From Nitrosopumilus sp. (GTDB taxonomy: Archaea; Thermoproteota; Nitrososphaeria; Nitrososphaerales; Nitrosopumilaceae), in assembly GCA_965218785.1 (NCBI GenBank), contig OZ244650.1, forward strand, positions 1,120,001-1,184,000: DNA of 64,000 bases, in the 5' to 3' direction. The position numbers and the translations under genes are program-made. Under the pieces are notes generated by a model. That model was not told the DNA's origin and did not search any database. It saw only the letters and a program-made list of their open reading frames with translations. Shown here one piece after another: positions 9,391 through 39,227 of this stretch (its first letter is position 1; every line of letters begins with the position of its first letter).

Positions 9391-9428
9391 TTTCAGAATA
9401 TTAAAGACGCATACGCATAACCAAAAAT

Positions 9429-12277: not shown

Positions 12278-13321
12278 CTAGGATAACCTTGTGTTTCGTA
12301 CTATCTTTTTTGGGAAATTTCTCAGTACGGGATAGCCGTGTGTGCGGGCGTTTTTATAATGCCAGTTTATGTCACGATCATCATAGTTTAGCGCATCAAG
12401 TGATTTTTCTATAATCTTGTTTAGCTTGTGACTCTTGTTCTTCTTGTATGTGTCGTTGCGGCTTAACAGTTTTTCTATGTAGTGTTGTGGCGGAAGATTG
12501 CCCAGTTTCTCACAGTTGCATACTTGACATGATAAAACCAGGTTCCATATCTCGGTATTGCCGATATAGTCAAATGGTATAACGTGGTCTACGTGCGTGT
12601 ATCGGTCATAGTTTAGCCTACTATTACAGTAAAAGCAGTTGTCTGTAAACAGCCTTAATTTATTCATGAATTTTCGCTGATCACGTGCGTCAGGTGTAAC
12701 ACCCTCGATTTTTTGTACCATTCTTGGTGTGCCAAAGTTTCGTATCTCAAGAAATCGGATCCACTCCAGAATTACGGATTTGTACAAGGGTACAAAGTTT
12801 TCCCTGAAGAAACGCATCGCTTTGGGATTGAGCAGTATGCCTCCCTTCGGATCCGTTCTTTTGTTGCCAGATGAATCCTTGTAGTCTATTGCAAAATAGT
12901 CGTAGAATATCTTTTTCTCGATTCTGCCAATTGACTGAAACCTGTGTATGACGTCCTTGCTGCATATACGTGTAATCTCTTTAACACAGTTTGCCACTTT
13001 ATCAGGCTCTTCCTCTTGAATCTTCTCAAATGATTGTGGATATGTATCCTGGTCAAATTCCTTGCGTATTTCAGTTATGACGCTGGGAGTCTGGTTTTTT
13101 GGCCCATGCCGGAGCTTGGACTTGCATTCCTGCAGCCAGTAATATTTGAAAAAGTATTTTGCAATCTCGGAATATTTGACCATCTGCTTGTCACATCTGT
13201 GGCTGTGCTCCAAAAGAAACCTTGCAAGTGCAAATTTGTATGTGTTGTTCTTTGGCCCCTTGGATAGAATTCCTATGAAGGTATTGCGGAATTCTTCATC
13301 AGATGTATTCTTAAACTTCAT
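12278..13321 (-). CDS. HNH endonuclease with an N-terminal extension (putative modification-dependent nuclease)
   Basis: CFYC...HVDHVIP...WNLVLSCQVCNCEK; N-terminal NTYKFALARFLL helix. Confidence 0.85.
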   Translation of the reverse strand: MKFKNTSDEEFRNTFIGILSKGPKNNTYKFALARFLLEHSHRCDKQMVKYSEIAKYFFKYYWLQECKSKLRHGPKNQTPSVITEIRKEFDQDTYPQSFEKIQEEEPDKVANCVKEITRICSKDVIHRFQSIGRIEKKIFYDYFAIDYKDSSGNKRTDPKGGILLNPKAMRFFRENFVPLYKSVILEWIRFLEIRNFGTPRMVQKIEGVTPDARDQRKFMNKLRLFTDNCFYCNSRLNYDRYTHVDHVIPFDYIGNTEIWNLVLSCQVCNCEKLGNLPPQHYIEKLLSRNDTYKKNKSHKLNKIIEKSLDALNYDDRDINWHYKNARTHGYPVLRNFPKKIVRNTRLS

Positions 13322-15607: not shown

Positions 15608-17827
15608 ATGGATGAAAAAATGATCTTAGAATCTGATTGGGATTATCAGCCTAAAATTGGAAAGGATTCTGGTCACCATATAACTAGAGAATCAGAACAT
15701 CGTATTTTGCTTGATTTTATTTCTAGAAGAAATGAGGGATCTATGTTAGTATGTGGACAAAGAGGGGCAGGTAAAACCAGCGCTGTTTTCAAAGCAACCA
15801 ATGAAACCATCATAAAAAATGAAAAAATCAAACCTATTTTGATAAAAGCGACGTCTATTCATTTAAAATCAAAGGAAGATTCAAAAAGTGAGGGAGATTC
15901 AAAAGATGATATCCTTAGAGGGATTATTCGTTCATTGTACAATCAAATTCAAGAGGATTCAGATATTGTTGGAAAATTAAAAATACAAACTTCCAAATTG
16001 TATAATAAAGCAATTGCATCAGAAGTCAAACAGGTAAATCAAATCCGCAGTAAATCAATTCATGAAAAAACATCTCGTATTCGTATTAATTTAATATGTG
16101 CATTATCGCTCGTTGCTGTTGGAATTCTTTCTTTATCAGATATTATTTTAGAATATAATTGGATTTTGTTCATCATAATAATTACAAATGGATTATATTG
16201 GACATGGAATTATTCCATAATAATAAAAAAATCATCCATTAACACAGCATCAAATTATTATCGTTATGATTATGATTTTTCCATTATGCAATCAGAATTT
16301 GAATTGCTCCTAGAAGAATTTGTGAAGGAGAAATTTAAAATATTGTTTATTATGGATGAGTTAGACAAAGTAGAGGAAGAATCACTATCCATAATTTTAA
16401 ATTTAAAAATGCTGATCAATCAAGGTAATGCGTTATTCATATTCATAGCTTCACCAAAAATATTATCGAATATTGAGGACAAAGCAAACCCAAATAGTAC
16501 TTTATTTTCACAGACATTATATCTAAAACGTCCATTATTTGATGAAATGCGTTATTTTATTACAGAGATTATCCTAAATGGTAGCGAACTAACTCAAAAT
16601 ACAGATTACAAAAACTTTCAGAATTTTTTATGCTATCAATCCAAAACTAGTTTTTTTGCTTTGTATAATGTAATCAGAGACACCATGATTAAAATTCTTC
16701 CAGAAGGACCCGTATTGAATTCCAATTTAAATACAGAACAGATCACCAAAGCCAATCTACAAAAATCAATAGAGTGGGTCTACGAGAGGGAAAAATATGA
16801 TACACCTTCGCTATGGGCAGAAAATGATGACATACTAGAAACCCTGTATAATGTTTGTAATAATCTTGAAAACACGCCCAAACTCAAAGACATTGTGTTT
16901 GATGAACAAGGTTTAAAATTCTCAGAAAACAACAGCACCACACTCACAAAACCTAAATCACGCTCTGCAGTAATTGGCTTGTTCACATTTTTAGTGTCTC
17001 AAGGCTATTTACAAAAAACACAAGAAAACACCTATCGTATCATAGGACACTTGGATACAATCATCGAAGAAAAAGGAGGAGTTTTTGCAGTAGACGAACA
17101 ACGATTCAAAGAAGAGTATGAGAACATGTTGGAATTGGCCATCAACATGGCCAACATCCATAACAAACACATAGAAGATTTGGGCGAGATTTTTTCATCA
17201 GATACGATAAATTCAAAATGGTCTACATTTTCCACATGCCTCAATAATTATTTTAACATTACAGCATTCGAAGAACATCATGAAATTTATATAGATTTGC
17301 TAGGAATTGATTCAGCTGTTTACCCATCAGAAAAATTACAGCCGATGACATCTGAATTACAAAATGCTCATGTTGAGATCAAACATAAATTTGTAGATCT
17401 TCTTGCGGCAGTATTCGTTAAAAAAATTCAGGGTTTAGAAATTCACCAAGCAGCAAAGGATATTAACCAAAGTGTTTTATCCAGTTACAGAGTTCCAAAT
17501 ACTCCTTTTGTCTATAATGAATTGATTTTTGATAAGTATTCTAAAAGTCATAAATTACAATATGTGGTAATCACGGAAAATATTCCCATAGATCATCTTA
17601 AAGAATTATTAGATGAAAATGATCGAAATGTCTTGATTATATCTTTGGGAGATTCTGAAGATAATTTAAAATATCAGGACATATCATCGGCACTCTCAAT
17701 AAGAACACTTCAACAGTGTCTTGATGAATTGTACACGTTAAATAATGATACTAAAAAATATCTATTTATGACAATCACGATCCCATTAAAATCCGATGAC
17801 CTGAAGCAAATATTGAATGTGTTATAA
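15608..17827 (+). CDS. KAP-like P-loop NTPase with two TM helices inserted in the NTPase domain
   Basis: Walker A GQRGAGKTS, two TM segments, Walker B ILFIMDELDK. Confidence 0.7.
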   Translation: MDEKMILESDWDYQPKIGKDSGHHITRESEHRILLDFISRRNEGSMLVCGQRGAGKTSAVFKATNETIIKNEKIKPILIKATSIHLKSKEDSKSEGDSKDDILRGIIRSLYNQIQEDSDIVGKLKIQTSKLYNKAIASEVKQVNQIRSKSIHEKTSRIRINLICALSLVAVGILSLSDIILEYNWILFIIIITNGLYWTWNYSIIIKKSSINTASNYYRYDYDFSIMQSEFELLLEEFVKEKFKILFIMDELDKVEEESLSIILNLKMLINQGNALFIFIASPKILSNIEDKANPNSTLFSQTLYLKRPLFDEMRYFITEIILNGSELTQNTDYKNFQNFLCYQSKTSFFALYNVIRDTMIKILPEGPVLNSNLNTEQITKANLQKSIEWVYEREKYDTPSLWAENDDILETLYNVCNNLENTPKLKDIVFDEQGLKFSENNSTTLTKPKSRSAVIGLFTFLVSQGYLQKTQENTYRIIGHLDTIIEEKGGVFAVDEQRFKEEYENMLELAINMANIHNKHIEDLGEIFSSDTINSKWSTFSTCLNNYFNITAFEEHHEIYIDLLGIDSAVYPSEKLQPMTSELQNAHVEIKHKFVDLLAAVFVKKIQGLEIHQAAKDINQSVLSSYRVPNTPFVYNELIFDKYSKSHKLQYVVITENIPIDHLKELLDENDRNVLIISLGDSEDNLKYQDISSALSIRTLQQCLDELYTLNNDTKKYLFMTITIPLKSDDLKQILNVL

Positions 17828-18268: not shown

Positions 18269-20437
18269 ATGGCATTTCAAGAACCAATAGATCCCTTCGT
18301 TGAGAAATTACAAGTGCTAATTGATGATTTAAAACAAGATATCAATTATAGGGGATTTGAAGAGATTTTAACAAAAATCGATGAAGAATTTCCATTTGTA
18401 GATTTATCCGAATTTTTAGAAATGTACGTTGATGGTGAATACTCCAAAGTACTAATAGAAAAATTTCATCTTTGCGGATTTATTGATTATTACAAACTTT
18501 TGCAAATTTTAAAATTAAATAAAAAACGAAGATCAGTTAGAAAAGATTCAACATCAAGAAAAACAAATTTTACAGATAGTAAATTGGCAAGACGATATGA
18601 AATATTAAATAACATATTGACAAGATTTCAAAAGTCAATTAAAAATAAAATAAATTATAATGTGTTAAGAGCAGTTATAATTTTACAATTGTATTTAAAC
18701 GAACAAAATTTTACAGATAGTAAAAAAATTCTTGAATCTGTACAAAAAACAATAAAAGATTTTGAACATTTAATTTTAGCCCCACATACACCGCTCTCAA
18801 CAATAAAAGATGATGAAATTAAAAAAATGTTAGATATGATATTACTAGAATTAAAAAATAACTCATTCATAGAAATAGATAATTCAAATAACTTTAGACT
18901 GGAAGTACATCAATTGCTTATTTGTAAATATATTTTTAACAACATACAAAATAGAAAAGATGGGATTACATATCAAGAATTAGTTATTTCTATTAAACAC
19001 AAACTACCAATATTATTACAAATTCCTCCTGCATTAATTATAATCACATTACAGGATTTCATAAATCAAAATATGGTAATTAGAAAGGAAGGGTATTGGA
19101 AATTCAAACCATTTTTTGATCAATATTTTACATTTGAAAACTATGAAAAAATGAATTTTGAAAATACAGATTCATTTAGAAAAAATAGAGAGTTTTTTGG
19201 GAGAAAAATTACTCCTAAAGAATTCATTCAAGAATTATTTGAACTTCAAAGGGGGAATTTTGAGGACCAAGATGATCAAGTAACACGAATTGCAGGCATG
19301 GTTTTGACAAACTCAAACATGATGAGTCATCCTCCAAATGATCTTAAAGAATTTGATTTTGTAGTAGATTTGTCAAGGTATGAATTTACAAAAAAACAGC
19401 AACAGATTATCAGCAATCTCAACCTAGAAATAAAATCCAATATCATTTATGTAAAAGTTATGATAAATGATGAAATTAAAGTTGATGAAATTTCCGATTT
19501 AATTCTCAAATTAAAAAAAAGAGAGCGAAACGAACAAGGCTTCATCATTTCATTTACACGTCCAGAAAAAATAATTTTACAGATATTAGAGAAAAACAAA
19601 ACAATTCAAATAATTTCAGAAAATGAATTAAGAGAGTGGTGTAAAATCACGCCAATCATTCCATCAAGAAGAGGAGCAGTTGCCATAATACGCCAAGGAG
19701 ATAATCGTGAAAGTATTGTGAAAATAAAGTCAGTCAATTATGAATCTGGAAGAGCAGACGTCATATTATTACCAAAAATGAATGAAAGCACTCAATACAT
19801 CGGATCTCTTGAGGAACTTACCATACCTATAAATATAAAAAAATTTATTGATTATTCCAATATTTATTTCCAATTTCTTTCAAAATTACGTCAAATTTCA
19901 AAAACAGATATCTTTAAAAAAATAATTTCAGAAAGCATATCAAAAACATCTACATTTAACAAAATAGTTGAAAAAAGAATTATTTTTGAGAAAGAAATAG
20001 AATATAGATTCGTTGGAAATTCAAAATGTAGGATTGATTTTATAAAATATCTTGACAAGGATTCATTGAAATATAGAACCGATGATTTATTTTCATGTAC
20101 TTGTTTTCAGTGGGATCAGAAAAGTAAAACAAATGGATTATGTGAACATTTAATTTTTATTTTAAATGAGTCAATTAAAGAAATATTTTCATTAGAGAAT
20201 AAAGTATCAGAGAGAGAAATTGCACATTATTTACTATTAATAGAACAAAGGATGGATTTGTTTCTAAAAAGATTACGATTTTCAAATAATGACGGATCTA
20301 TGATTGCAGAATGTCCAAATTGTGGGCAGATTGAACATAATCTTAAAGGAGTAGAAGAAAGATTTGGATATCGCCAAATGAATAAAGATAATAAATTTTC
20401 GCTTAGACGACAATCGAGATGTAAAGAGTGCAGATAA
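18269..20437 (+). CDS. Multidomain protein: REase-like fold + SWIM Zn finger + C-terminal Zn ribbon
   Basis: FEDQ..EFDFVV..IYVKV..GFIISF..IQIISENELREW (Mrr-like fold, possibly inactive); CTC-x11-CEH SWIM; CPNCG...FGYR...QSRCKECR. Confidence 0.6.
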   Translation: MAFQEPIDPFVEKLQVLIDDLKQDINYRGFEEILTKIDEEFPFVDLSEFLEMYVDGEYSKVLIEKFHLCGFIDYYKLLQILKLNKKRRSVRKDSTSRKTNFTDSKLARRYEILNNILTRFQKSIKNKINYNVLRAVIILQLYLNEQNFTDSKKILESVQKTIKDFEHLILAPHTPLSTIKDDEIKKMLDMILLELKNNSFIEIDNSNNFRLEVHQLLICKYIFNNIQNRKDGITYQELVISIKHKLPILLQIPPALIIITLQDFINQNMVIRKEGYWKFKPFFDQYFTFENYEKMNFENTDSFRKNREFFGRKITPKEFIQELFELQRGNFEDQDDQVTRIAGMVLTNSNMMSHPPNDLKEFDFVVDLSRYEFTKKQQQIISNLNLEIKSNIIYVKVMINDEIKVDEISDLILKLKKRERNEQGFIISFTRPEKIILQILEKNKTIQIISENELREWCKITPIIPSRRGAVAIIRQGDNRESIVKIKSVNYESGRADVILLPKMNESTQYIGSLEELTIPINIKKFIDYSNIYFQFLSKLRQISKTDIFKKIISESISKTSTFNKIVEKRIIFEKEIEYRFVGNSKCRIDFIKYLDKDSLKYRTDDLFSCTCFQWDQKSKTNGLCEHLIFILNESIKEIFSLENKVSEREIAHYLLLIEQRMDLFLKRLRFSNNDGSMIAECPNCGQIEHNLKGVEERFGYRQMNKDNKFSLRRQSRCKECR

Positions 20438-20470
20438 ATAATTGACAATAAATGGGATCAAAAATGTTTT

Positions 20471-21673
20471 ATGCCTATAATAATGTGTAAATATATGAGT
20501 AATGAATATTCAGAAGATGCTCGAAAAATTAATGAATATATAGAAAATAATCCTTCTTGTAAGATTCCAAAAACAATTTCCATAATATTACAGGGTAAGA
20601 AAACAGATTTGCAAACATTTCGCCTTCCATTAGATTTGACATATTATAATATCAAAAATGGAAGATTTGCAGCAGAGTATATTGATCTTATAAAAAAGGA
20701 AGGTCATGTGTTAAATCCAAAAAATCCAGATGATTCAAAAAAAATTCAAACGTTATTGTTTGAGCTAGATCTTAAACAAAGTGTGATTTTAGAAAAAGAT
20801 CTACAACAACATGGACAAAAAGATCCAGGAATTATGACTCATGATGGATTTGTAATCAATGGAAACAGAAGACGTTCTGTACTTGAAGAATTAGGATCAC
20901 AAGGACATTCTAAATTCAAATTTATCGAAGTTGCCAGATTGCCACCAAATGTTTCATCACAAGATCTATGGAAATTAGAAGCAGGGATACAATTATCACG
21001 TTATGTTCAATTAGATTATGGTCCCATCAATGAATTATTAAAATTCAAGGAGGGAATAGACTCAGGATTAATGCCTAAAGAAATAGCAAATGCACTCTAC
21101 GGGGGATTTAAAGAAAAGGATATTTTAGAAAAATTAGAACAACTACAATTAATCATGGAATATCTAAATTTTATTGGAGAACCAGGTGTCTTTAATAAAG
21201 TAAAGAGGGTTCATGAGCATTTTATTGATTTACAAAATATTCTAAAAGGATTGAAAAAATATGATGCAGGACTAGATGAAATTATAAGTGTAAAAAGAAT
21301 AGGATTTCAATTAATCCATGATGGCGTTCCTCAGAGAGAAATTAGAAAAATTAAAGAAATTCTTTCAAATGAAAAATCAAAGAAGGAATTTTTGAGAGCA
21401 CGGGAATATAGTAGACCAGAAAAACAAAATAAGAAAAGAGAAAAAAGAATATTAGCAGAATCAAAAGATGAATTTACAGAAACACGAGTTATTTTTAACA
21501 ACTGTTTGGATTCAACAAAAGCATTATCAGAATCCCAACAACCAGAAAAATTACTCAGACGAGCATTGACGAATTTAGAAAGTGTAGATTTTGATTCTAA
21601 TCTATTACAAAAACCAGTGATCATATCATTAATTTCAGATATCGAATCAATAATCAAAAAAATAAAAAAATAA
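20471..21673 (+). CDS. ParB/Srx-like N-terminal domain protein (paralog A)
   Basis: YYNIKNGRF, GQKDPGIMTHDGFVINGNRR, DLWKLEAGIQL, YGPINELLK. Start may be the later MSNEY. Confidence 0.75.
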   Translation: MPIIMCKYMSNEYSEDARKINEYIENNPSCKIPKTISIILQGKKTDLQTFRLPLDLTYYNIKNGRFAAEYIDLIKKEGHVLNPKNPDDSKKIQTLLFELDLKQSVILEKDLQQHGQKDPGIMTHDGFVINGNRRRSVLEELGSQGHSKFKFIEVARLPPNVSSQDLWKLEAGIQLSRYVQLDYGPINELLKFKEGIDSGLMPKEIANALYGGFKEKDILEKLEQLQLIMEYLNFIGEPGVFNKVKRVHEHFIDLQNILKGLKKYDAGLDEIISVKRIGFQLIHDGVPQREIRKIKEILSNEKSKKEFLRAREYSRPEKQNKKREKRILAESKDEFTETRVIFNNCLDSTKALSESQQPEKLLRRALTNLESVDFDSNLLQKPVIISLISDIESIIKKIKK

Positions 21674-21727
21674 TCTAATTTGCATGAAATATTAACTATT
21701 TAAATACAGTAAAATTAATTCTTGGGA

Positions 21728-22660
21728 TTAACTTGAGGTTAAAGAAAATTTCAAGCCAGTTTTAAATTTTTGTGTTTTCTTCATTTCTTTTTTGAACGCA
21801 CTAATTCGTTTGTTAGCATATGCTTGATACATAGGATTTTTTTCCATTCCAATGTATTTTCGATTTAATTTTATCGTCGCGATGGCAGTAGTGCCACTTC
21901 CCATAAACGGATCTAAAACAACATCTTCATCTTTGGTAAACAATTTGATAAACCATTCAGGCAAGGCTATTGGAAAAGCAGCACTGTGATTGACATTTTG
22001 ACATTGAGTGGCCATGTGAAGTACATTTGTAGGATAAACCACATCCTTACCCTTCCAATTAGAGACATTTTTACTAAGTCCACTCATCACTTTTGATTCA
22101 CATCTATATTTGTCAGTATCAGACAGATTTTTGAGCCTAGAGTCAGCCCATTTACCCATTGGGATCATTACAGATTTTTGATACATTTTGAATTTTTTCT
22201 GTCTAGTAAAATGAAGACATCTTTCCCATGAATCTCTAAATCGATTTGGCCATTTTCCAGGAAATGAGTTTTTTTTATGCCAGATATATTCTTCAGTCCA
22301 TAACCAACCCTGTTTTTTCATCTCTAATATTAATTCGATTACATAAGTTTCACGTTCACAATTTATAGATCTTTCTTTAATGTTCAAGATAAAAGAACCA
22401 CGAGGCTTTAAAACACGTTTTAGTTGTTTTGAAATTGGTAAAAACCATTCAATATAATTTTTTGCTGAAATACTTTCGTATGAATTTCTTCGCTTACCGG
22501 CATAAGGTGGGGAAGTAATAATAAGATCAACTGAACTAGAATCTAATTTAAATAATTTGGTTAAACAATCACAACGATAGATTACATTATGACGTTGTCT
22601 TGACTCTGGCAATGTACTCATTTTTTTCCAAGATCGTCTCTTATAGGTTTTTTCAATCAA
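21728..22660 (-). CDS. Beta-class DNA methyltransferase (N4C/N6A; SPPY suggests m4C)
   Basis: DLIITSPPY (motif IV) precedes HSAAFP and VLDPFMGSGTT (motif I). Confidence 0.92.
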   Translation of the reverse strand: MIEKTYKRRSWKKMSTLPESRQRHNVIYRCDCLTKLFKLDSSSVDLIITSPPYAGKRRNSYESISAKNYIEWFLPISKQLKRVLKPRGSFILNIKERSINCERETYVIELILEMKKQGWLWTEEYIWHKKNSFPGKWPNRFRDSWERCLHFTRQKKFKMYQKSVMIPMGKWADSRLKNLSDTDKYRCESKVMSGLSKNVSNWKGKDVVYPTNVLHMATQCQNVNHSAAFPIALPEWFIKLFTKDEDVVLDPFMGSGTTAIATIKLNRKYIGMEKNPMYQAYANKRISAFKKEMKKTQKFKTGLKFSLTSS

Positions 22661-23646
22661 ACATCACCGAGTTTTTGGACATGATAATTTTCAGCAGTAA
22701 CAGAAAATAATTTTTTTATAAAAATTTTTCTAAAAGGATTTTGAATTTTCTGAATTTCCAAATTATTGTTTTTTGTTTCAATATCAACGTTAGGTACAAA
22801 ATAAATCCAATATTTATCTTTTAATTCCGAAGCAATTTTTTTTTCATTTTCAGACCAATGAAAATCTAAATCTTTACCAGAGGAACCTTTTACTTCAATG
22901 AATCTATCATAATCCCTATTGGCAGATTCACGATCAAATGATATAATATCAAACCCAGCATTGGCATGTTGTATACTAATGCGCTGAACTTTCTTGGATT
23001 CAAAAAAACATTCAAGATTTTTGAGTCTATTTTTCTCATATTTTATAACAATATCTTCTGCGATATCACCAATTTTTTTCATCAGTCTTAATTGTTCATC
23101 AATTTGTTTTTGACTAATTCGTACTTTCAAAGTAATTTTTTTAGATGAGATTTTATCGTTATATTGTGGATTAAGAATTACTTTATCACCAAATAATAGA
23201 AGTAATTCACATTCATACAAAAGAGGCAATAATTCTTTTTTATGAAATAAATCATAAACCTGATCAGAAGGAGCCCATACTTTATCTGGAGTTGTTGCAA
23301 ATCTAGACAAACTATCATTGATGGATTGGGATAAAGAACCATGAAGAAAACATTGTTCTCGAAAAAGTTTTTTTAATTCATAGTTTAAACCAAAACTTTT
23401 TTCATATTCATCGAAAATATGATTACCCAATATGGTGATTTCAATTACATTATTTTCTAATTTTAGTATATTGACATCTTCACAGAATTTTCTAAGTTCA
23501 TCAAAATCAGGATACAGTGCCTGCTCAACAGGAGAATTGTTGAATGTTTTGGCAACATATGCGGTTACGGCTTTACTATTCTTATCATTTTCAAATTTTT
23601 TTATAATTCCTAAAAGTTTTGGAATTTGTTTTAATTTGATTGTCAT
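22657..23646 (-). CDS. DUF3883 (NOV C-terminal) PD-(D/E)xK nuclease
   Basis: IGDIAEDIVIKYEK...AGFDIISF...RFIEVKGS...FHWSENE...YWIYFV. Confidence 0.85.
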   Translation of the reverse strand: MTIKLKQIPKLLGIIKKFENDKNSKAVTAYVAKTFNNSPVEQALYPDFDELRKFCEDVNILKLENNVIEITILGNHIFDEYEKSFGLNYELKKLFREQCFLHGSLSQSINDSLSRFATTPDKVWAPSDQVYDLFHKKELLPLLYECELLLLFGDKVILNPQYNDKISSKKITLKVRISQKQIDEQLRLMKKIGDIAEDIVIKYEKNRLKNLECFFESKKVQRISIQHANAGFDIISFDRESANRDYDRFIEVKGSSGKDLDFHWSENEKKIASELKDKYWIYFVPNVDIETKNNNLEIQKIQNPFRKIFIKKLFSVTAENYHVQKLGDV

Positions 23647-23647
23647 A

Positions 23648-25627
23648 TTACAGTCTTTTTAAATCACGCAAATGTTTAACTAATGAATCATAATCTCGGT
23701 TAAATTCATCTTTGGTTTCATTAATTACATCAAAATTAACATTTTGAAGAAATGGATCATCAAGAGCAGTAGTCATGTCTTCCCATTTCTCCCAAAGTCT
23801 TTGATGAATTTGCTCATCAATCGTATCCCTGCCAATTACAAGATGATAATTAACAGTGACATCTTGAGGCATCCCTACCCTATGAATTCTATCAACTGAT
23901 TGCATAAACTGAGCACCGTTAAAATTTCGGTCCAAGTATATTGCATTTCTACAAACAGATTCTTCTTTTGCATTTTTGTGCAATGAAACAGACTCACCAA
24001 GAGATGCTGGTGTGGCAATTAGTACTTTGTAATCAGGATTATTTTTAAATTTGTATACCAAATCATCTCTATTTGGTTGATCATCAGGATCTCTGGATAC
24101 GTCACCATAAATCAAAATAGGATCAAATTCTTTTAAAACATCTTCAGCGTATATGTGCATATTAAGTAAAAAGGAACTCCAGATGAGTACTTTTTCTCCT
24201 TTGTTGACAAGATCACTGGTTAGTGATGCAACCTTTCGTATTTTGCTAGGAATTTCAAGATCAGAGTATTTTGTAATCTTTTCTGAAATTGATAGATTTT
24301 TCAAATCATTATTATCAATAGAATCAACGTCAAACCCAAGCTGGGCACTTACCATTTCTCTTGAAGAATTAAATAATGGGCTGTTAACATTGAATTCGTG
24401 TGACATTTCAAACAACAGAGAAGGATTGGAAGCAGATTGAAGTAATCGAATCATTTTTGCAATTCTGAATCTTTGTAATTTTGCTTGTTCTTCCAAAGAA
24501 TCAATTTCTTCAAGAGTTTTGCTAGCAATTACATCATAGATTTGTCTTTGATGATCTCCAAGATCCACCGTGATTGGAATAAATTTTGGTTCTGGAAGAT
24601 GAAGATCATCTTTCATAACTCGTGTAAATAAAGAACGTAAACGTTCGCGATGAGTATTACTTAATCCACGTTTTTTTACATAATCATTATATTTACTTTG
24701 ATTTCCCAAAGGAAGATCATGCGGCCACAGATAAGTTATCTGATTCCACAAATCCTGAGAATTGTTAGGCATTGGAGTTCCTGAAAGAATGATTCTACGA
24801 GTTGCAAATTGTGCAAGAAATAAAGCAGCGTTTGCCCATGCACCTAGATGAGGATTTTTAATTCTGTGAGATTCATCAACGATGAGAACGGTTTTATATT
24901 TTTTAAGAAAATTCATCAATTCCATTCGTTTTGAATTAGATGTTTGATAATGGAGTAAAAATAAATCATAATTATCACCAATATCTTCTAAAATTTCTGC
25001 AATATCTCCTTTAATTCTTAATGTCCTGGCAGATTTCTCAAAACACCCAACATATTCGTCCTCCCAAGGAACAAATGATGCAATAGGACCAATAACCATA
25101 ATTTTTTCAATAATCCCGTCTTCCAACCATTTTGAGATAGCAGCATAAGTCATAGTTGTTTTACCGCTGCCAGGTACAGAAAAATTTGCACCGTTGTTTA
25201 CTGCCAACAAATGTTCGACAGATTGTTTTTGAAAATCCAATAACTCTCTTTTAAAAGTTGCACCCAAAATTGGATTGTGCTTACCTTTATCTTTGACTGC
25301 AGATCCTTGATCTAAGGCTTTTTGATATAATTTATTTTCTAGTTGTTGTTCTGAAAGATTTTTTTTAATATCATCACTAATTGTAAGGGACCCTAGTTTA
25401 GGGTTATCATTAAAAAAATCTTTCATGTATTGTGCAGTTTTAAAAAATTTTACGGTGTTATTTGTTTTAGGATAAACAAAGGTAATTCTATTTTCATCTT
25501 GTTGAATTTGTTGAAAATCACCACTGATCGCAGTATCCATTAAATCATAATCGGTTTCATAGTCACCTGTATTGTCATACTCTAGAACAAGATTTCCAGT
25601 ATTATGATCAATAGTAAGAGATGTCAT
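23648..25627 (-). CDS. SNF2-family helicase/translocase
   Basis: LLDFQ, NFSVPGSGKT, IVDESHRIKN, LSGTPMPN, KVLIWSSF, QSVDRIHRVG. Confidence 0.9.
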   Translation of the reverse strand: MTSLTIDHNTGNLVLEYDNTGDYETDYDLMDTAISGDFQQIQQDENRITFVYPKTNNTVKFFKTAQYMKDFFNDNPKLGSLTISDDIKKNLSEQQLENKLYQKALDQGSAVKDKGKHNPILGATFKRELLDFQKQSVEHLLAVNNGANFSVPGSGKTTMTYAAISKWLEDGIIEKIMVIGPIASFVPWEDEYVGCFEKSARTLRIKGDIAEILEDIGDNYDLFLLHYQTSNSKRMELMNFLKKYKTVLIVDESHRIKNPHLGAWANAALFLAQFATRRIILSGTPMPNNSQDLWNQITYLWPHDLPLGNQSKYNDYVKKRGLSNTHRERLRSLFTRVMKDDLHLPEPKFIPITVDLGDHQRQIYDVIASKTLEEIDSLEEQAKLQRFRIAKMIRLLQSASNPSLLFEMSHEFNVNSPLFNSSREMVSAQLGFDVDSIDNNDLKNLSISEKITKYSDLEIPSKIRKVASLTSDLVNKGEKVLIWSSFLLNMHIYAEDVLKEFDPILIYGDVSRDPDDQPNRDDLVYKFKNNPDYKVLIATPASLGESVSLHKNAKEESVCRNAIYLDRNFNGAQFMQSVDRIHRVGMPQDVTVNYHLVIGRDTIDEQIHQRLWEKWEDMTTALDDPFLQNVNFDVINETKDEFNRDYDSLVKHLRDLKRL

Positions 25628-26895
25628 TATGAATCCAATTTTATTTTGAGTTTTTCAAAATGACGAAGAATTTGCCGGATTATCCCAGTACATTGTTTAC
25701 CGGTCAGTTGGTCACTATCATAATCAATTCCGTCTAGATATTCCAAGGCATTGCCCAATAATCTTGGAAGATCATGTTCATTTTTCTTGACATTTAATGC
25801 TTCAACCGCATTAGTCCACATAGTATTAATCTCACTAGTTTTTGATTCATCCTCATCTTTGTCAGGATTAGGATCTTTAAATTCATTATCTATCATATCA
25901 GACACATCATCGCCAAGAGATTTTTTGGGTTTAGGAACTACAAGATCTGGAGATATCGGTTTTGATTTTTCTGCAATTTGTTCAATCCATTCTAATGCCT
26001 TATCAGATTCAAATTTCACCATTTCTCTAATTTTTCGTATTTCTAAATGAGAACGACCATCACGAATAAGTGCCCAAATAGCACGTTTGAGAGATTTCCT
26101 ACGAACCGGATCATCTACTCTATCATAGTAAAAATCAAGAATATTTTGTGCGTTAATAAAATGTTCAACTTTGCCTTTAGCTTCACTGTATTTTTGAGGC
26201 ATTCCATTAAATTTCAGATATTCTTCAATGAGGTCCAATCTTTTGAGTTTTTTTGAAATTTCACTATCATCGCGAAAACCGTATAAAGTTGTAGCAATTT
26301 CGTTTGGAGTTAACCCAGATTCAATTCCTTCCTTTAATTTTAATAATTCGTTGATAGGTCCATACCTTACAATTTCATCTTTTCCTAATTGGATACCAGC
26401 CTCCAATTTCCAAAGATCATTTTTGTCTATAGATGAAGGCAGTCTAGCTACCTTCATTACATTAAATTTAGAATTTTCCTTGGATAAATTTTGTAAAAGT
26501 GATAATCGTCTATTCCCATCAATGACAAATCCATCATGAGTCATAATTCCCGGATTCCACTGACCACGTTGTTTAATGTCAATAGAGGTTCGATCTGTTT
26601 CAATAGGGTCTAAATTAAGAAGAAGATTTTGAATTTTTCTAGAATCATCTTTGTTTGTGGGATCAAATGATCGTCCACCATTCTTTCGAACTAATTCCAA
26701 ATATTCTGCTTTGAATCTACCATTTTTGATATTAAAGTAAAGATAGCCCAAAGGGATATTGTAGACATACAAAAGTTCTTTTGTTCCTTTTAGTAAAACC
26801 GGAACCCGTTCATCAGTCAAACATTCGTCTTTATTTTTATCAATATACTCTTGTAATGCAAGTTTATTCTCAGGATTATCCAACATCATATTCAA
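25627..26895 (-). CDS. ParB/Srx-like N-terminal domain protein (paralog B)
   Basis: YFNIKNGRF, GQWNPGIMTHDGFVIDGNRR, DLWKLEAGIQL, YGPINELLK; its stop overlaps the SNF2 ATG (TAATG). Confidence 0.78.
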   Translation of the reverse strand: MNMMLDNPENKLALQEYIDKNKDECLTDERVPVLLKGTKELLYVYNIPLGYLYFNIKNGRFKAEYLELVRKNGGRSFDPTNKDDSRKIQNLLLNLDPIETDRTSIDIKQRGQWNPGIMTHDGFVIDGNRRLSLLQNLSKENSKFNVMKVARLPSSIDKNDLWKLEAGIQLGKDEIVRYGPINELLKLKEGIESGLTPNEIATTLYGFRDDSEISKKLKRLDLIEEYLKFNGMPQKYSEAKGKVEHFINAQNILDFYYDRVDDPVRRKSLKRAIWALIRDGRSHLEIRKIREMVKFESDKALEWIEQIAEKSKPISPDLVVPKPKKSLGDDVSDMIDNEFKDPNPDKDEDESKTSEINTMWTNAVEALNVKKNEHDLPRLLGNALEYLDGIDYDSDQLTGKQCTGIIRQILRHFEKLKIKLDS

Positions 26896-27557
26896 GAATT
26901 AATGATAATTAAAGATATCATGAATTTCGAGCAAAGAGTTTAGAACTTGATCGAATCAAGTAACTATCGAAATCACCACCAATCATGGAAGATTTTCTAA
27001 AGGGATGGATCTGGAAGTTCAAAGAAATATCAGATTAGAGTAAATATGATAAAATTGATAGAAAACTGAGACTGCAAATGAGGTGGAATTTAAGAAGTAT
27101 TGGATTTTACAAAGAAATGGAAAAAGAGAAAATCATCTACGGCTTATTTCAAATAAAACCAAGATGTACTATGGAGATAAAGGATTTTATGTAAATAATA
27201 CTAATTTGTTTATCACAATATTAGATAAAAAATTAATAGTAATTCTTAATTCAGAATTATAATGTATTTGATAGAATATTTGTATATTAGAATTAAAGAG
27301 GAAAACAAATATGGGAAAATTTTAAAAAATTCCCAATTTTTATTCATAAATCACCATTAATTGAAAAAGATGTTGACAAATATTATTTTTAAATAAAAAA
27401 TTAAAAAATAAAAATTCAAACAAAATAAAAACTAATGATGAGACCATCAATTACAAAAAAATAATGATTAAATTCATAAATTTTATGATCTGATATATGA
27501 AAAAATCAAAATCACTGAATCAACTGTAAGAATATCATGATTGTGTAATTTTATCAT

Positions 27558-29309
27558 TCAATGAGGAATTCCCGTCCAATCTTCATAACCTTCCCATCCT
27601 TTTTCTCGATAAACATAACTTGGATTATGTGGGATGTTTTTTGGTTTGGCAGAATCATTCCATTCCCCATATTCTTTATAATTTTTGAAATTTAGATTTC
27701 TAACATATGCTTTTGCTTCGTCAAAAGGCAAGTATTCTCGCTCATTAATTCCATACCAATCATAAATATCAAAAAAGAATCTACCAGCAGTTGGAAAATA
27801 TTTGAATGGTTTTGCAGGAATGTTTTTTGGTTTTTTACCAGATTTAGCATATTTAGTCCAATCAGATGAAGATTCAAAATTTAAAGTTGATACGAATTTT
27901 TTTTGATCTTCATAAGAAAGATACTCACGATCAAATGCGCCAAACCAGTTATCCCAATCTATCCATTGTTTTTTATAAATCAGATTAGGTTTTGCAGGAA
28001 TATTTTTTGGTTTTTTACCAGATTTACAGTATTCTTTCCATTCTGATTGATAATCAAAAATCAAAATAGAGACAAATTTTTTGGCATCTGTAAATGACAG
28101 ATATGCTCTATGCTGAACACCTAGCCAGTCATCATAATCTTTCCAATCACCGGTGTACACATTTTTTGGATTAGATGGTACGTTTATGGGTAATTTACCA
28201 GATTTACAAAATAATTTCCATTCTTTTTCACTATCTAAGGCCAGATTTAAGACAAATTTTTTGGCATCTGTAAATGACAGGTATTTTCGTTTAGTGATAC
28301 CTAACCAATCATTCCAACCTTTCCATTCAAAGGAATAATCTTTTTTTGGATTTAGTGGAATATTTTCAGGCTTTTTGCCTGAAATACAAAATTTTTTCCA
28401 ATCTTTTTCATTTATCAAATTTAAATTCTGAACAAACATCCTAGATTCTTCAAAAGACAAATATCGAGAAGGTTCAGTAGAAGTATTTTTGAAGGTTTGA
28501 TAAATTTTTTCCAATTCATCAACATCAAATTGTAAAGTTAATTTTTTACTTTCATTAGAAACTAACCTTGTAAAATCATCATTTAGATTAGAATTAGATT
28601 TTTTTGCAACAACGTTTCCAATGATTTCTTTTTCATCATTAGTTAATGGACGTTTTAAAGAAGATGTAAGGGCCATTTCAACAAATAATTGATGAACCTC
28701 AGAAAATTCAATTTTTCCTATGTATAGACCCTCTTTTCCTCTAGATTTGGTTAATTTTTTTATTAGTTTAATTGCCAAATCTAATCTATCAATTTTCATA
28801 TATGCAAAAATTTTAACATGACTAGCATAGATCCCAGTTTGTTTTTCAAGTAAAGGAATCACGTCTGCATACTGTCCCAACATACACATTGCTTTTGCTT
28901 TTTCCAAAGAAAAGAGAGAATCATCCATTCCATCATCTAATTTTTTTTGGTTTATTCTGTCACATAATGAAATAACTTTTTGATAATTACCAGTCTGGAA
29001 ATATGTAATCATTCTATTCAAACAGGTTGTACCATGTAACAACAATTTGTCAGAAATATCATCTGTAGATTCTTCTGATCTAAATTTATTTTCTATATTT
29101 TTTTTAAAAAAAGTATCTGGATAATCAGACATGGAAAATGAGGAATATACGGAGTCTGGCACATCATAATACCAAAATAATTTTCCGTTATCAAATCCAA
29201 TTTCTACAACATTTTGTTTCCAACTATATCTATAACAACGAATTAATCCTGAATTTTTTCTATAGTGATACCCAACAAATCCAGATTCAATTTTATCTTT
29301 AGAAATCAT
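27558..29309 (-). CDS. KTSC domain + TPR-like region + five ~60-aa phage-integrase-type repeats
   Basis: KTSC-like VEIGFDNGKLFWYYDVPDSVY..F..NI; repeats YLSFxxAK.FV..L.....W...KSGKKP.NIP..P...Y...W..W.DW.G, with 180-bp DNA periodicity (28071 vs 28251). Confidence 0.7.
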   Translation of the reverse strand: MISKDKIESGFVGYHYRKNSGLIRCYRYSWKQNVVEIGFDNGKLFWYYDVPDSVYSSFSMSDYPDTFFKKNIENKFRSEESTDDISDKLLLHGTTCLNRMITYFQTGNYQKVISLCDRINQKKLDDGMDDSLFSLEKAKAMCMLGQYADVIPLLEKQTGIYASHVKIFAYMKIDRLDLAIKLIKKLTKSRGKEGLYIGKIEFSEVHQLFVEMALTSSLKRPLTNDEKEIIGNVVAKKSNSNLNDDFTRLVSNESKKLTLQFDVDELEKIYQTFKNTSTEPSRYLSFEESRMFVQNLNLINEKDWKKFCISGKKPENIPLNPKKDYSFEWKGWNDWLGITKRKYLSFTDAKKFVLNLALDSEKEWKLFCKSGKLPINVPSNPKNVYTGDWKDYDDWLGVQHRAYLSFTDAKKFVSILIFDYQSEWKEYCKSGKKPKNIPAKPNLIYKKQWIDWDNWFGAFDREYLSYEDQKKFVSTLNFESSSDWTKYAKSGKKPKNIPAKPFKYFPTAGRFFFDIYDWYGINEREYLPFDEAKAYVRNLNFKNYKEYGEWNDSAKPKNIPHNPSYVYREKGWEGYEDWTGIPH

Positions 29310-32932: not shown

Positions 32933-33147
32933 TGATACGTTATAATCAGGGATTTGATATGAATTGGGTTCCCTTCAAATCAAAATGGCCAGGAAAATGC
33001 GAAGCCTGTGAATGCTCTATTTTCGAAGGGGATGATATTTTTTGGAACAAAATTTCAAAAAAGATCAGACATGAAAAATGCCTTGATGTTGAATTTTACC
33101 AAACAATGAATCAAACACAGTATTGGAAAGGAGGCAGACATAGATGA
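32932..33147 (+). CDS. Small Zn-finger protein
   Basis: SKWPGKCEACECSIFEGD...RHEKC; overlaps both neighbours. Confidence 0.55.
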   Translation: MIRYNQGFDMNWVPFKSKWPGKCEACECSIFEGDDIFWNKISKKIRHEKCLDVEFYQTMNQTQYWKGGRHR

Positions 33148-35606
33148 CTGCTTTCGTTTTAGAATCTTGTCCAAAATGTAAGAATGCATTATATGAACAA
33201 TATATCAATGGTAATGAGATTCTTATTTGTACGAAATGTAAATTCGAAAAGATATGTAACACCGAACCTCAGATAAAAGAAGTGGTTGCACCAAATAATT
33301 ATAGGAAATTAAAAATTAAAACAAATATAGATAAAACATTACTAAAACCTGTTTCCGAATTTGAAGATATTGATTTCTCAGAATATGTCAAGCAGGAAAA
33401 AAACTGCAAATTAATTCATGAGATGATCTTACCCAAATCTGAGCCCAAATACTCTCAAAAATCCCTAGACAAATTAATCACCAGTACAAAAATTAGGAAT
33501 TTTCTAAAGAAAGATATTCCAAATTTATATTCTTATCAGGCCAAAGTAATTACAAAAATTACTGAAGATAAAAATGTCATAATCACTGCACCTACCGCTT
33601 CAGGAAAAACAAAAGCATTCTTGATTCCAATTTTAGATAAAATCATTCAAAATCCAAATGAAAACAAGGTTTCTGCACTTTTTGTTTATCCAACTAAAGC
33701 ATTAACTGCGGATCAAGTTGAAAACATGTATGATCTTATTGCGGAATCAGGCATTACAATCAAACAGTTAGACGGAAGTAAAAAAGAGCAGGAATATAGG
33801 CGTCAGATAATCTCCAATCCCCCGGATATTCTTGCAACTAATTTTGATTTTATTTCTTACCACTTGGCTCATTCCAGCAGCACTCCTTTTTCACATGCAT
33901 TTAGGGAAATGATTAGTAATCTAAAATTCATCGTAGTGGATGAAACTCATCAATGCAAAGGATTCTTTGGAACTAATATCAAATGGATTTTAAAAAGACT
34001 GCAAAGATTAAATCCAGATTTACAATTTATTGCCGCATCGGCAACTTTAAACGATGCAGTTAATTTTTGCAACAAGTTATTCCCTGTTAAAATGACTCAG
34101 ATAGAAGGATCTGGTAAAAGAGGAAGTCTGACGGTACAATTTGTTCAAACCAGCACAGAACGCTCTTTGTTAATCACATTGACCCGGTTGTTTGCAAAGT
34201 ACGGGAGACAGGTTTTGACTTTTGCAAAATCAAGAAAAGATGCCGAACTTGTTGCAATTGACGGTTCTGACAAATCCTGTGAAATATTTGTTCATCGTTC
34301 CGGAATCTCTGATCAGAAAAGAGCAATCGTGGAATCTGCATTAAGAAAAAATGAAATTAAAGCGGTTTCCTGTACGCCCACCCTGGAGTTAGGCATAAAC
34401 ATTGGCAATCTTGATGCGGTAGTTTCTTCTTTTACCCCTTATTCTAGATTGACTCAAAGAATTGGAAGATCTGGCAGACATGGTCAGGACTCTAATGCAA
34501 TAATGGTTTTAGACGAATCAAACCCAATTGCCAACTATTACATCAAAAATATTCAAAAATATTTTGATGATGATAAATTACATACGATTAACTTTGAAAA
34601 TCCCACAGTAGTAGAAAACCAAATCCTCTTAATGGCAAAAGAAAACCCTCTTTCAGAATATGAAACCACTGAATTTTCTAAAACAGTTCAAATTCTATGT
34701 GGTGACGGACGATTAATTTTCAATAATGGGAAATACCATTGTTCTGATTCTGGCTGGAAATCTCTTGCCGAATATAATATCAGAGACATGGGTTCCTCTG
34801 TTAAATTATTTAAAAAGTTGTACTATTCAGAAAAGCAGTATCATATTGGCGAAATTGAAGCTCCAATTGCCTATGATTGGCTATATCCAGGGGCATTGTA
34901 CTTTCATGATAAGATAGCTTATCGTTGCCAGTCTTTTGAGAAACGAGCAAAATATTCTAAAGCATACTTGATTCCTGAAACCACTGCCAACATGACACTT
35001 CCAATAAAATTTAAAGATGCAGACATCAAAGAAATTTATGAATCTGCAGAGGGTTCAAACTTTACAATGGCATATGGTTTAGTCCACGTTCACCAACAAA
35101 TTTCAAAATATTATGAAAAAAATAGATCTGCATCTTTAGATAATGCGGAGATTCATGATGTAGATAAGCCACTTCATTTTGATTTTGACACATTAGGTGT
35201 TGCATTTAGATTAAATTCTCAAAATATCCCTTCAAAATTACACCTATCTGATTCACTTACTAGTGCGGATGGTGCATTGCATGCCGTCAAACATCTCTTA
35301 ATTCATGCTGCAAAGATGATTGTTGGTGCTGAAAGTAGTGAAATTGATGGAATGGTTGATCCTACTAAAAACATCATTTTGCTATTTGATAATTCTATGA
35401 ATGGTGGAAATGGGGTTTGCAAAGCAATATTTGAAAAACAAGATTTAGTTATTGAGCGAGCCTTGGAATTAATTTCAACTTGTGATTGTAATGAAGCGGC
35501 TGGCTGTCCAAAATGTACCCATTGGGATGGCTGTTCTCACTTTAATGAGAATTTAGAAAAAGAAGATGCAAGAAAAATTCTAGAATCTATGAGCTCTTTA
35601 CAATAG
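33144..35606 (+). CDS. DEAD/DEAH helicase with a C-terminal DUF1998 Zn domain (MrfA/Hrq1-like)
   Basis: LYSYQ, TAPTASGKT, VVDETH, SAT, TLELGINIG, QRIGRSGR, LHAVKHLL, CDC..GCPKC; N-terminal CPKC..CTKC ribbon. Confidence 0.92.
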   Translation: MTAFVLESCPKCKNALYEQYINGNEILICTKCKFEKICNTEPQIKEVVAPNNYRKLKIKTNIDKTLLKPVSEFEDIDFSEYVKQEKNCKLIHEMILPKSEPKYSQKSLDKLITSTKIRNFLKKDIPNLYSYQAKVITKITEDKNVIITAPTASGKTKAFLIPILDKIIQNPNENKVSALFVYPTKALTADQVENMYDLIAESGITIKQLDGSKKEQEYRRQIISNPPDILATNFDFISYHLAHSSSTPFSHAFREMISNLKFIVVDETHQCKGFFGTNIKWILKRLQRLNPDLQFIAASATLNDAVNFCNKLFPVKMTQIEGSGKRGSLTVQFVQTSTERSLLITLTRLFAKYGRQVLTFAKSRKDAELVAIDGSDKSCEIFVHRSGISDQKRAIVESALRKNEIKAVSCTPTLELGINIGNLDAVVSSFTPYSRLTQRIGRSGRHGQDSNAIMVLDESNPIANYYIKNIQKYFDDDKLHTINFENPTVVENQILLMAKENPLSEYETTEFSKTVQILCGDGRLIFNNGKYHCSDSGWKSLAEYNIRDMGSSVKLFKKLYYSEKQYHIGEIEAPIAYDWLYPGALYFHDKIAYRCQSFEKRAKYSKAYLIPETTANMTLPIKFKDADIKEIYESAEGSNFTMAYGLVHVHQQISKYYEKNRSASLDNAEIHDVDKPLHFDFDTLGVAFRLNSQNIPSKLHLSDSLTSADGALHAVKHLLIHAAKMIVGAESSEIDGMVDPTKNIILLFDNSMNGGNGVCKAIFEKQDLVIERALELISTCDCNEAAGCPKCTHWDGCSHFNENLEKEDARKILESMSSLQ

Positions 35607-39209: not shown

Positions 39210-39227
39210 CTAAAGTTCTCATGTATC

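Follow-up and report, generated by a model that had tools for sequence, protein, structure and literature searches.

A probable AbiR-type defence cassette with two ParB-fold proteins on a Nitrosopumilus chromosome

What would a marine archaeon do with six closely packed genes that bring two ParB-like proteins together with an SNF2-family ATPase, a nuclease and a DNA methyltransferase? The question is raised by positions 18269–26895 of a 64,000-nucleotide stretch of Nitrosopumilus sp. DNA (assembly GCA_965218785.1, contig OZ244650.1, positions 1,120,001–1,184,000), the whole of which is called the window here. An earlier note on this DNA had proposed a candidate new defence system, in a combination not known to its author among the named ones. 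We consider it probable, at roughly two chances in three, that the six genes form one AbiR-type defence cassette on a defence-island-like chromosomal stretch. Judged by its sequence relationships, the cassette appears to be a relative of AbiR with a different build and not a new kind of system. Its own features are the twin ParB-fold proteins and a protein with a SWIM zinc finger, and it is an unnamed AbiR-type variant.

The region was found to contain six intact open reading frames (ORFs) in two converging groups, a plus-strand pair facing a four-gene minus-strand operon. The plus-strand pair encodes a protein of 722 amino acids (aa), named protein A (18269–20437), and a second ParB-fold paralogue of 400 aa, named ParB-A (20471–21673). 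The minus-strand operon starts with the core ParB-fold protein, the AbiRb-like ParB-B of 422 aa (25627–26895), which is followed by the SNF2 ATPase/translocase of 659 aa (23648–25627), the DUF3883/NOV_C nuclease of 329 aa (22657–23646) and the methyltransferase of 310 aa (21728–22660). In this operon ParB-B and SNF2 meet in a TAATG at 25627, SNF2 and NOV_C are one nucleotide apart (23647), and NOV_C shares four nucleotides with the methylase (22657–22660); the six ORFs and their coupled junctions, as first noted, were confirmed from the ORF calls. A non-coding AT-rich stretch of 662 bp (26896–27557) lies 5′ of the operon and contained no ORF of 80 aa or more.

The three enzymes of the operon carry intact catalytic signatures. 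The SNF2 protein matched Pfam SNF2-rel_dom (1.6e-18) and also ResIII, and its Walker A sequence GSGKT, its DESH box and motif VI were invariant in 20/20 relatives; its N-terminal region (residues 1 to about 125) was lineage-specific. The NOV_C protein matched its Pfam family at 3.9e-17, and D233 together with E251-V-K253 was invariant in 19/19 relatives, the N-terminal half being variable. This PD-(D/E)xK protein is the presumed DNA-cutting effector. The methyltransferase matched Pfam N6_N4_Mtase (1.7e-44) and PADLOC MTase_II (2.1e-50), and its motif IV (TSPPY) precedes motif I (FMGSGTT), which is the beta-class order. The SPPY motif is usually taken as a mark of N4-cytosine methylation; the label of an m4C-type enzyme follows from motif IV and this general rule, and both the modified base and the target motif are putative. 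The methyltransferase is presumed to be the self-protection gene.

If these genes form a functional unit, the same set should be met elsewhere, and a genome search with an alignment of the ParB-like family (A1) returned 21 loci (L001–L021) in named genomes, where a single-protein query had found none. The archaeal sources were Nitrosopumilus, Cenarchaeum, Nitrosopelagicus, Nitrosarchaeum and Marine Group I, together with one Thermoplasmata and one Methanomicrobiales metagenome-assembled genome (MAG), and the bacterial sources were Chloroflexota, Verrucomicrobiota, Planctomycetota, Bacteroidota, Nitrospinota, several Pseudomonadota and Candidatus Electryoneota. The loci span archaea and at least eight bacterial phyla. 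The SNF2 gene lay directly downstream of the ParB-like gene in all 21 loci. NOV_C came after SNF2 in 19 of them, and the other two (L013 and L021) end inside SNF2. The order ParB-like, SNF2, DUF3883/NOV_C is a conserved core, and the arrangement is far beyond chance because it recurs in other genomes. From this conservation, ParB-B, SNF2 and the DUF3883 nuclease are probably co-transcribed with the attached methyltransferase. The view that a ParB-fold protein makes one unit with an SNF2 protein and a DUF3883 nuclease, the motifs of the one and the D…ExK signature of the other being intact, was thus borne out.

A methylase was adjacent in 15/21 genome loci. Orthologues of the window-type PF01555 enzyme were found after NOV_C in L001, L006, L007 and L008, and upstream in L002; a cluster of D12 Dam-like methylases was present in nine loci (L010–L018; Pfam-checked on two), and the methylase of L019 was a 716-aa Zn-ribbon PF01555 enzyme. 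L006 and L007 had an additional Eco57I/MmeI-like methylase upstream. With the C5 enzymes described below, the methylases that accompany the core belong to at least four families. The linkage of SNF2, DUF3883 and methyltransferase genes that had been remarked in this one locus is therefore recurrent, and the description of the unit as defence-like and methylase-linked holds across loci. The ParB-like, SNF2 and methylase genes were in pieces in the Thermoplasmata (L020) and Methanomicrobiales (L021) loci, which look like decaying cassettes.

The core was also found on mobile elements. A search of a viral collection gave 34 loci, and SNF2 followed the ParB-like gene in 28 of them; four others (L031, L036, L046 and L059) were cut by the contig end and two (L055 and L057) were without SNF2. 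NOV_C was found in 21/34 of these loci (20 by tblastn, L058 by Pfam) and a C5 methylase cluster in 21. In six, the type III restriction-modification (R-M) genes Mod and Res preceded the ParB-like and SNF2 genes, and the same arrangement was seen on a Lactococcus plasmid. The typical prophage order was serine integrase, Vsr, DpnII/BanI-like protein, ParB-like, SNF2, NOV_C and, on the opposite strand, the C5 methylase, continuing with a cI-like repressor and then an ImmA/IrrE protease; the stretch between integrase and repressor is the usual prophage cargo site. The left end of Streptococcus phage Javan191 carries the cassette, whose genes appear in the annotation as hypothetical proteins, ‘SNF2 family helicase’ and ‘DNA-cytosine methyltransferase’. 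Cassette relatives were present on conjugative plasmids as well.

Two loci on mobile elements showed other company for the ParB-like gene. The distantly related locus L055 (9428–14079) encodes a 579-aa fusion of a Swt1-type HEPN domain with the ParB-like protein and, after it, a 970-aa protein with an RNA polymerase alpha-CTD and a sigma70 region 4, which may be an AbiRa-like partner. In L061, the Enterococcus lactis plasmid NZ_CP082964.1, an 860-aa protein of unknown type, a 403-aa ParB-like protein and a 620-aa SNF2-type helicase stand after a type I R-M system (5363–11024); relatives of this ParB-like protein at 60–80% identity were found on 44 plasmid records, and Enterococcus accounted for 52/66 matching records.

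The ParB-like proteins themselves were characterised by alignment and structure prediction, as Pfam, NCBIfam and PADLOC gave nothing above noise for protein A, ParB-A or ParB-B, and PHROGs gave nothing for ParB-B or for one prophage ParB-like protein. ParB-A and ParB-B aligned with 40% identity over 412 columns (E 3e-84), and the long blocks that had been quoted as common to both were present in this alignment; the two are, by sequence, evidently paralogues. The AlphaFold2 model of ParB-B, built from a 65-sequence family alignment (A2), had a mean predicted local distance difference test score (pLDDT) of 92.3 and a predicted template modelling score (pTM) of 0.89. Foldseek against the Protein Data Bank (PDB) placed Spo0J, Noc, Myxococcus ParB and KorB at the top (E ~5e-4, probability 1.0). 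With VIA-align, the model matched KorB (8qa9_B) at Z 10.6 over 200 residues with a root-mean-square deviation (rmsd) of 4.0 (model residues 43–300), Noc (7nfu_B) at Z 10.2 and pNOB8 ParB-N (5k5d_B) at Z 10.2, and sulfiredoxins matched the N-domain only (Z 6–7.7). The model points to a ParB/Srx N-domain and a helix-turn-helix (HTH) domain, followed by a helical C-terminal part (about residues 300–422), and the call of ‘ParB-like’ proved right, with a confident ParB fold in the modelled copy.

ParB-B carries the motifs NxxNGR and DGNRR (residues 126–130), the latter spanning the end of strand 123–126 and the start of helix 128–138. True ParB proteins carry GERR at that strand–helix position. Residues R60, Q112, G122, N128, R130 and E165 were invariant in 65/65 family members. 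A contrast between DGNRR in ParB-B and NGNRR in ParB-A had been drawn earlier; the difference is real but ordinary, as the first position was aspartate in 26, asparagine in 37 and serine in two of the 65 members, which is normal variation within the family. The family is large, with 1293 cluster representatives at E ≤0.001 and 96 at E ≤1e-30.

Do these proteins then serve partition, as their fold might suggest? ParB proteins are CTP-driven clamps for chromosome partition and gene silencing. ParB-B resembles the ParB, Noc and KorB clamps in having a ParB/Srx N-domain followed by an HTH (Z 10.2–10.6, about 200 residues) and a GxRR-type motif at the strand–helix junction; it differs in its C-terminal helical domain and in its constant partners, which are an SNF2 ATPase and a nuclease and not ParA. 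A repeat search of the three intergenic stretches found short imperfect repeats only and no palindromic array resembling a ParB site. The cassette could be a maintenance or addiction module of a mobile element, in which the ParB proteins act in partition or silencing and the methylase and nuclease act as a post-segregational killer. The occurrence of relatives on conjugative plasmids and prophages would fit such a role, as would the NCBI names of some distant plasmid relatives (‘ParB/RepB/Spo0J family partition protein’, ‘ParB N-terminal domain-containing protein’) and the top structural match to KorB, which is a plasmid repressor. However, no ParA-type ATPase was found among the scanned window ORFs or as a recurrent neighbour in the 21 and 34 loci, where the constant partners were the motor and the nuclease, and the window copy is chromosomal, with no integrase or replication gene among the Pfam matches of the six ORFs. 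We regard a maintenance or addiction module as very improbable.

A physical link between the ParB-fold protein and its constant partner was assessed by complex modelling. The model of SNF2 (residues 1–578) with ParB-B reached a score of 0.68, whereas the best of three controls scored 0.00; 58/80 solved complexes and 2/110 mismatched pairs attain that mark, counts that are rough since custom alignments were used. Between runs, 95% or more of the contacts were the same, and the partner pLDDT was 75 or higher. The modelled interface brings residues 23–74 and 309–315 of SNF2 against residues 225, 258–271 and 294–317 of ParB-B. The model supports a contact of ParB-B with the SNF2 N-terminus, and with it the association of ParB and SNF2 that had been suggested earlier.

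The same pairing of a ParB-like and an SNF2-type protein leads to AbiR. In the passages on AbiR in a review (PMC13064643), the system of the Lactococcus lactis plasmid pKR223 is described as three genes, AbiRa, AbiRb and AbiRc, that work with the LlaKR2I methylase. AbiRa is sigma70-like there; AbiRb is ParB-like, with a structural match to PDB 5K5D; and AbiRc joins an N-terminal domain like an ATP-dependent restriction endonuclease to a Snf2-type ATPase. By the same account, AbiR lowers phage DNA replication and was first classed as abortive infection, it needs the LlaKR2I R-M methylase and is toxic to the cell without it, and it has been known as a working phage resistance since 2000–2006 with its mechanism still open (PMC13064643).

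The cassette and the lactic-acid-bacterial loci were found to share families in both proteins. Used as a query, the ParB-like protein encoded in a Lactiplantibacillus plasmid locus (CP096858.1, with genes for dcm, ParB, PLD-SNF2, a MutH/Sau3AI-like restriction endonuclease (REase) and Vsr) led to AAF75618.1/Q9KJ10, a 398-aa protein annotated as ‘unknown’ from L. lactis subsp. lactis bv. diacetylactis. This is the AbiR host taxon, going by the title of Yang 2006 in the reference list of PMC13064643, and AAF75618.1 is probably AbiRb. It matched ParB-B at E 2e-17 and ParB-A at E 1e-20 over 373 columns (BLASTP), and hhalign of the window family (A2) against the family of AAF75618.1 (A6) gave 100% and E 9.3e-58 over 370 columns, nearly full length. 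In the same way, the window SNF2 aligned with the CP096858.1 PLD-SNF2 protein at 28% identity over 536 columns (E 1e-48), and both have the unusual Walker A context NFSVPGSGKT; the plasmid protein has PLDc_2 at residues 60–173. The idea that the combination has no counterpart among named systems was not supported by these results, as the ParB-like and SNF2 proteins share families with an AbiR-type locus and AbiR is already methylase-dependent, with toxicity when the methylase is missing.

As far as AbiR is described in the review, the cassette and AbiR both join a ParB-fold protein to an SNF2-family ATPase, include a nuclease function and are tied to a DNA methylase. The structure matched by the AbiRb model (5K5D; PMC13064643) is also among the top three matches of ParB-B, and the SNF2 gene, whose start overlaps the ParB-B stop codon, is adjacent to a ParB-fold gene as in AbiR-type loci. 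They differ in the methylase, which is a small beta-class SPPY enzyme inside the operon of the window and belongs to a neighbouring type II R-M system in AbiR, and in the two ParB paralogues, the winged-helix, REase-like and SWIM protein and the archaeal host of the window cassette. Viral contigs scanned with A6 gave distant, already known relatives only and no bona fide AbiR locus.

Other named systems share parts of this gene set. In the passages on Hma that were consulted, HmaA is an SNF2-DUF3883 fusion whose nuclease domain is reported to be essential for defence against T4 (PMC11232893), and Hma, a type-1 BREX-related system, consists of HmaA, a methylase and a DUF499 ATPase (PMC11232893; PMC12839542). 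On that description, an SNF2 motor, a DUF3883 PD-(D/E)xK nuclease and a methylase are common to both. In the window, however, motor and nuclease are two ORFs separated by 1 nt, and neither a DUF499 ATPase (HmaC) nor a DUF1156 methylase was found among the six ORFs, a ParB-fold protein replacing the ATPase. The PADLOC HmaA matches were partial and weak (6.2e-11 on SNF2 497–638 and 3.6e-4 on NOV_C). DISARM class 1 likewise co-encodes an SNF2 protein with a methylase in a methylation-based defence locus; the DrmD matches on the window SNF2 were weak and partial (PADLOC 3e-9; NCBIfam 3.7e-8 against a 950-bit cut-off), and PADLOC gave no DrmA, DrmB or DrmC match in the cassette. Literature searches combining ParB, SNF2, DUF3883 and methyltransferase found no paper describing this cassette, and the relevant passages of a HEPN survey, of work on Asgard mobile genetic elements (MGEs), of work on BREX-related systems and of a Dnd reappraisal were considered and set aside.

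How might such a cassette work? The best reading is methylation-gated, motor-driven restriction, in which a ParB-type NTP switch would license an SNF2-nuclease. The methylase would mark host DNA, and ParB-B, with its NTP-binding N-domain and HTH, would bind unmarked DNA, nucleotide binding serving as a switch or clamp. The middle helical domain of ParB-B would hold the N-terminal region of SNF2, and the motor would translocate on foreign DNA, which the PD-(D/E)xK nuclease brought along by it would cleave. A lineage-specific add-on would be formed by protein A and ParB-A, most likely providing the same motor with another input for reading or sensing DNA, or with a further nuclease; in relatives this slot could be filled by the sigma-like AbiRa, by the DpnII/BanI-like protein or by the type III R-M pair. 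The toxicity of AbiR without its methylase fits an attack on unmarked DNA. In its most specific form, the proposal is that the ParB-fold protein is a nucleotide-gated clamp on unmethylated DNA that licenses the SNF2-nuclease, and that in marine archaea two diverged clamps feed one motor, one of them with a SWIM/REase-like reader. We put this forward tentatively, since taken as a whole it is somewhat unlikely.

If true, a ParB clamp gating a restriction motor would be a new use of the ParB switch, and the clamp would explain the 25-year-old puzzle of AbiR. The cassette shows the ParB-like/SNF2 pair to be a widespread mobile module, found from dairy bacteria to marine ammonia-oxidising archaea, that swaps methylases, nucleases and DNA-reading partners, and such loci are uncounted in defence censuses based on PADLOC-DB 2.0.0.

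The methylases allow this scheme to be compared with an abortive-infection or modification-dependent system, in which the trigger would be phage-modified DNA or a phage protein, the effector would arrest the cell or kill it, and the methylase would have another role. Its first classification as abortive infection that lowers phage DNA replication places AbiR itself on that side (as given in PMC13064643). Some ParB-A orthologues carry Mrr_N, and a HEPN-ParB fusion occurs in the distant relative L055. Mrr_N is a domain known from a modification-dependent enzyme. Against this, the methylase families linked to the core, at least four and unrelated, look as if any site-marking enzyme serves, and the toxicity of AbiR without methylase, as the review passages describe it, points to an attack on unmarked self DNA. 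An abortive or modification-dependent mode is improbable, and methylation-gated restriction is preferred.

The second ParB gene raised a further question, as the twin ParB had been seen as central to the system. Two ParB-like genes were found only in L001–L005 and the window; one of these loci is from a Gammaproteobacteria MAG, the others from Nitrososphaerota. In a quick maximum-likelihood tree with Shimodaira–Hasegawa-like approximate likelihood ratio test (SH-aLRT) support, from which the 998-aa Mrr_N/AAA_5 protein of L008 was excluded as outside 350–600 aa, the ParB-A copies formed one clade (six rows, SH-aLRT 99), sister to a ParB-B clade (nine rows, 98) that includes the single ParB genes of L006–L008. 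ParB-A appears to be a lineage-specific duplicate, accessory to the core and confined to a marine clade made up mostly of Nitrososphaerota. A single ParB-like gene is the rule among relatives, and the twin ParB had to be given up as a core feature; the variant may be viewed as a natural experiment in adding specificity.

The two groups of genes in the window might have different origins. The ParB-B, SNF2, NOV_C and methylase proteins were 70–82% identical to those of the single-ParB locus L006, and protein A and ParB-A were 67–73% identical to those of L001, so that the window cassette looks assembled from two sources. Protein A was present in four of the six twin loci (window, L001, L002 and L005), L003 being cut on that side, and in none of the single-ParB genome loci. 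In L004, which has no protein A, an Mrr_N domain is fused to ParB-A, and such fusions were also seen among metagenome homologues. The listings of ParB-A and protein A homologues had 28 longest-contig sizes in common, as if the two lay on the same contigs, which is indirect support.

These observations bear on whether two systems stand side by side here, the four-gene operon on the one hand and a self-sufficient protein A and ParB-A pair that does not use SNF2 on the other. The opposite strands of the two units in the window and L003, the modular assembly indicated by their different closest relatives (L006 for the operon genes, L001 for the pair), and the REase-like domain of protein A itself, with its invariant acidic residues, speak for separate systems. 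But ParB-A was never found without the ParB-B/SNF2/NOV_C set (6/6 twin loci, the window included), it opens the operon in L001, L002, L004 and L005, where it is immediately upstream and reads in the same direction, and in L004 it comes with Mrr_N in place of protein A. Two independent systems are thus unlikely, and a single cassette with an added pair remains the preferred interpretation.

What protein A adds was approached from its predicted structure. The model had a pLDDT of 86.5 and starts with a helical N-terminus, followed by two winged helices (121–213 and 215–292; structural matches with Z 8–10). The region of about 318–461 matched AF1548 (1y88) at Z 7.8 with 107 residues, over 329–461, and the Rpb5 N-domain at Z 7.0–7.1, both of which we take to be restriction-endonuclease-like folds; it is followed by a KOW-like barrel at 464–519 (Z 7.1, rmsd 1.3). 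FokI and Nt.BspD6I were weak whole-chain Foldseek matches (E 0.011 and above). Residues E322, D335, D336, Q337, R340, D363, Q423 and Q447 were invariant in 32/32 relatives and K396 in 31/32, and position 401 was acidic in 25/32. The SWIM zinc finger, C610-x-C612…C625-x-H627, was invariant in 32/32. A C-terminal Zn ribbon of the form CxxC…CxxC is made of C682, C685, C718 and C721 and is missing in roughly half of the aligned relatives, as estimated from gaps at flanking columns (15/32 for the first pair and 11–13/32 for the second), the cysteine columns themselves being uncounted. Of the ‘REase/SWIM/Zn-ribbon’ label given earlier, the SWIM and the CxxC…CxxC parts hold, and the REase-like fold is moderately supported by the model. 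Protein A is possibly an active nuclease, and it is presumed to be a DNA reader or a second effector acting with ParB-A.

Several points weigh against one AbiR-type cassette that works by methylation-gated restriction. The tie to AbiR passes through AAF75618.1, a protein taken for AbiRb from its taxon, its size and the review description. Against the AbiR of that description, no sigma-like AbiRa was recognised in the cassette; no sigma-family Pfam match was found in the six ORFs, and protein A, which does have two winged helices, showed no BLASTP similarity (E 0.47) to the 860-aa Enterococcus plasmid protein, an unverified AbiRa, encoded upstream of the ParB-like gene. Likewise, the N-terminal nuclease of AbiRc is absent from the window SNF2, for which Pfam and PADLOC gave no PLD or other nuclease match, and the nuclease is the separate DUF3883 gene. 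The three ParB-family genes examined had no match in PADLOC-DB 2.0.0 and hence no named-system call, and PADLOC gave no AbiR-named match for any ParB-like protein tried, the lactic-acid-bacterial ones included. The relation of ParB-B to solved ParB structures is visible by fold and not by sequence: when PDB chains were searched with the profiles A1 and A2, ParB was absent from the matches, which were all designed helical proteins. In the DNA available for L003, L004, L005 and L009, two of which are twin-ParB single-cell-genome loci, no methylase could be recognised. In protein A, position 394, two residues before K396, is Y or H and not the acidic residue of a (D/E)xK motif. Finally, it is our inference that the ParB-fold proteins bind NTP, behave as clamps and read methylation.

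The distribution of the family was examined with the A2 profile, which found it in 3/61 related genomes, a figure that includes the genome of the window and its two copies; another of the three belongs to the same order and has a divergent copy adjoining an SNF2 gene. Within the same genus it was found in 1/36, as a marginal fragment with stops only (E 7e-4). The gene set is therefore accessory. This bears on a last alternative, that the genes form a housekeeping module for DNA repair or chromatin remodelling. SNF2 proteins and nucleases also work in repair, and a methyladenine glycosylase and Mre11/Rad50-like genes are present in the window, but presence in so few related genomes and spread across archaea, many bacterial phyla, plasmids and phages are at odds with housekeeping, which we hold to be extremely improbable for an AbiR-type cassette such as this one.

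The window around the cassette was found to be rich in defence-type genes. Adjoining the cassette on the minus strand, a 583-aa KTSC and INT_rpt protein (27558–29309) has a 60%-identical copy at positions 5259–7013 of L006, a Nitrosarchaeum MAG, and is either a shared neighbour or a further part of the cassette. Directly upstream of protein A on the plus strand, a 739-aa protein (15608–17827) with weak P-loop matches to AAA_22 and AAA_16 had no PADLOC match and was not kept beside the cassette in other loci. Further away, an HNH endonuclease of 347 aa (12278–13321, minus strand) had weak PtuB/Cas9 HNH matches, and a 592-aa AAA_5 McrB-like ATPase (4.5e-13) overlaps a 517-aa partner without a Pfam match (5092–8420, minus strand); the pair resembles McrBC, and neither protein has a PADLOC match.

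On the other side of the cassette, an 820-aa DEAD helicase of the YprA type with a C-terminal MrfA Zn-binding (MZB/DUF1998) domain (33144–35606, plus strand) matched SngC (5.5e-45), BrxHI (2.5e-43) and DruE in PADLOC, and no partner genes were recognised for it. At 37779–42780 on the minus strand, a 476-aa GHKL ATPase has as its neighbour an SMC/Rad50-like ATPase that reads as two ORFs, one of 244 aa carrying AAA_23 and one of 554 aa carrying the SbcC Walker B; a Mre11/SbcD-like phosphoesterase (372 aa) adjoins this set, which may serve either defence or repair, and the split of the ATPase may be apparent or real. At 57851–60733 on the plus strand, the gene for a double-GTPase (DO-GTPase1/2) precedes that for a GAP1-N2 protein in DNA with a very low G+C of 0.25–0.27; such pairs have been described in NTP-dependent conflict systems. 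A 768-aa Eco57I/MmeI-like methylase (49364–51670, minus strand) adds, like the HNH endonuclease, to the defence-island character of the window.

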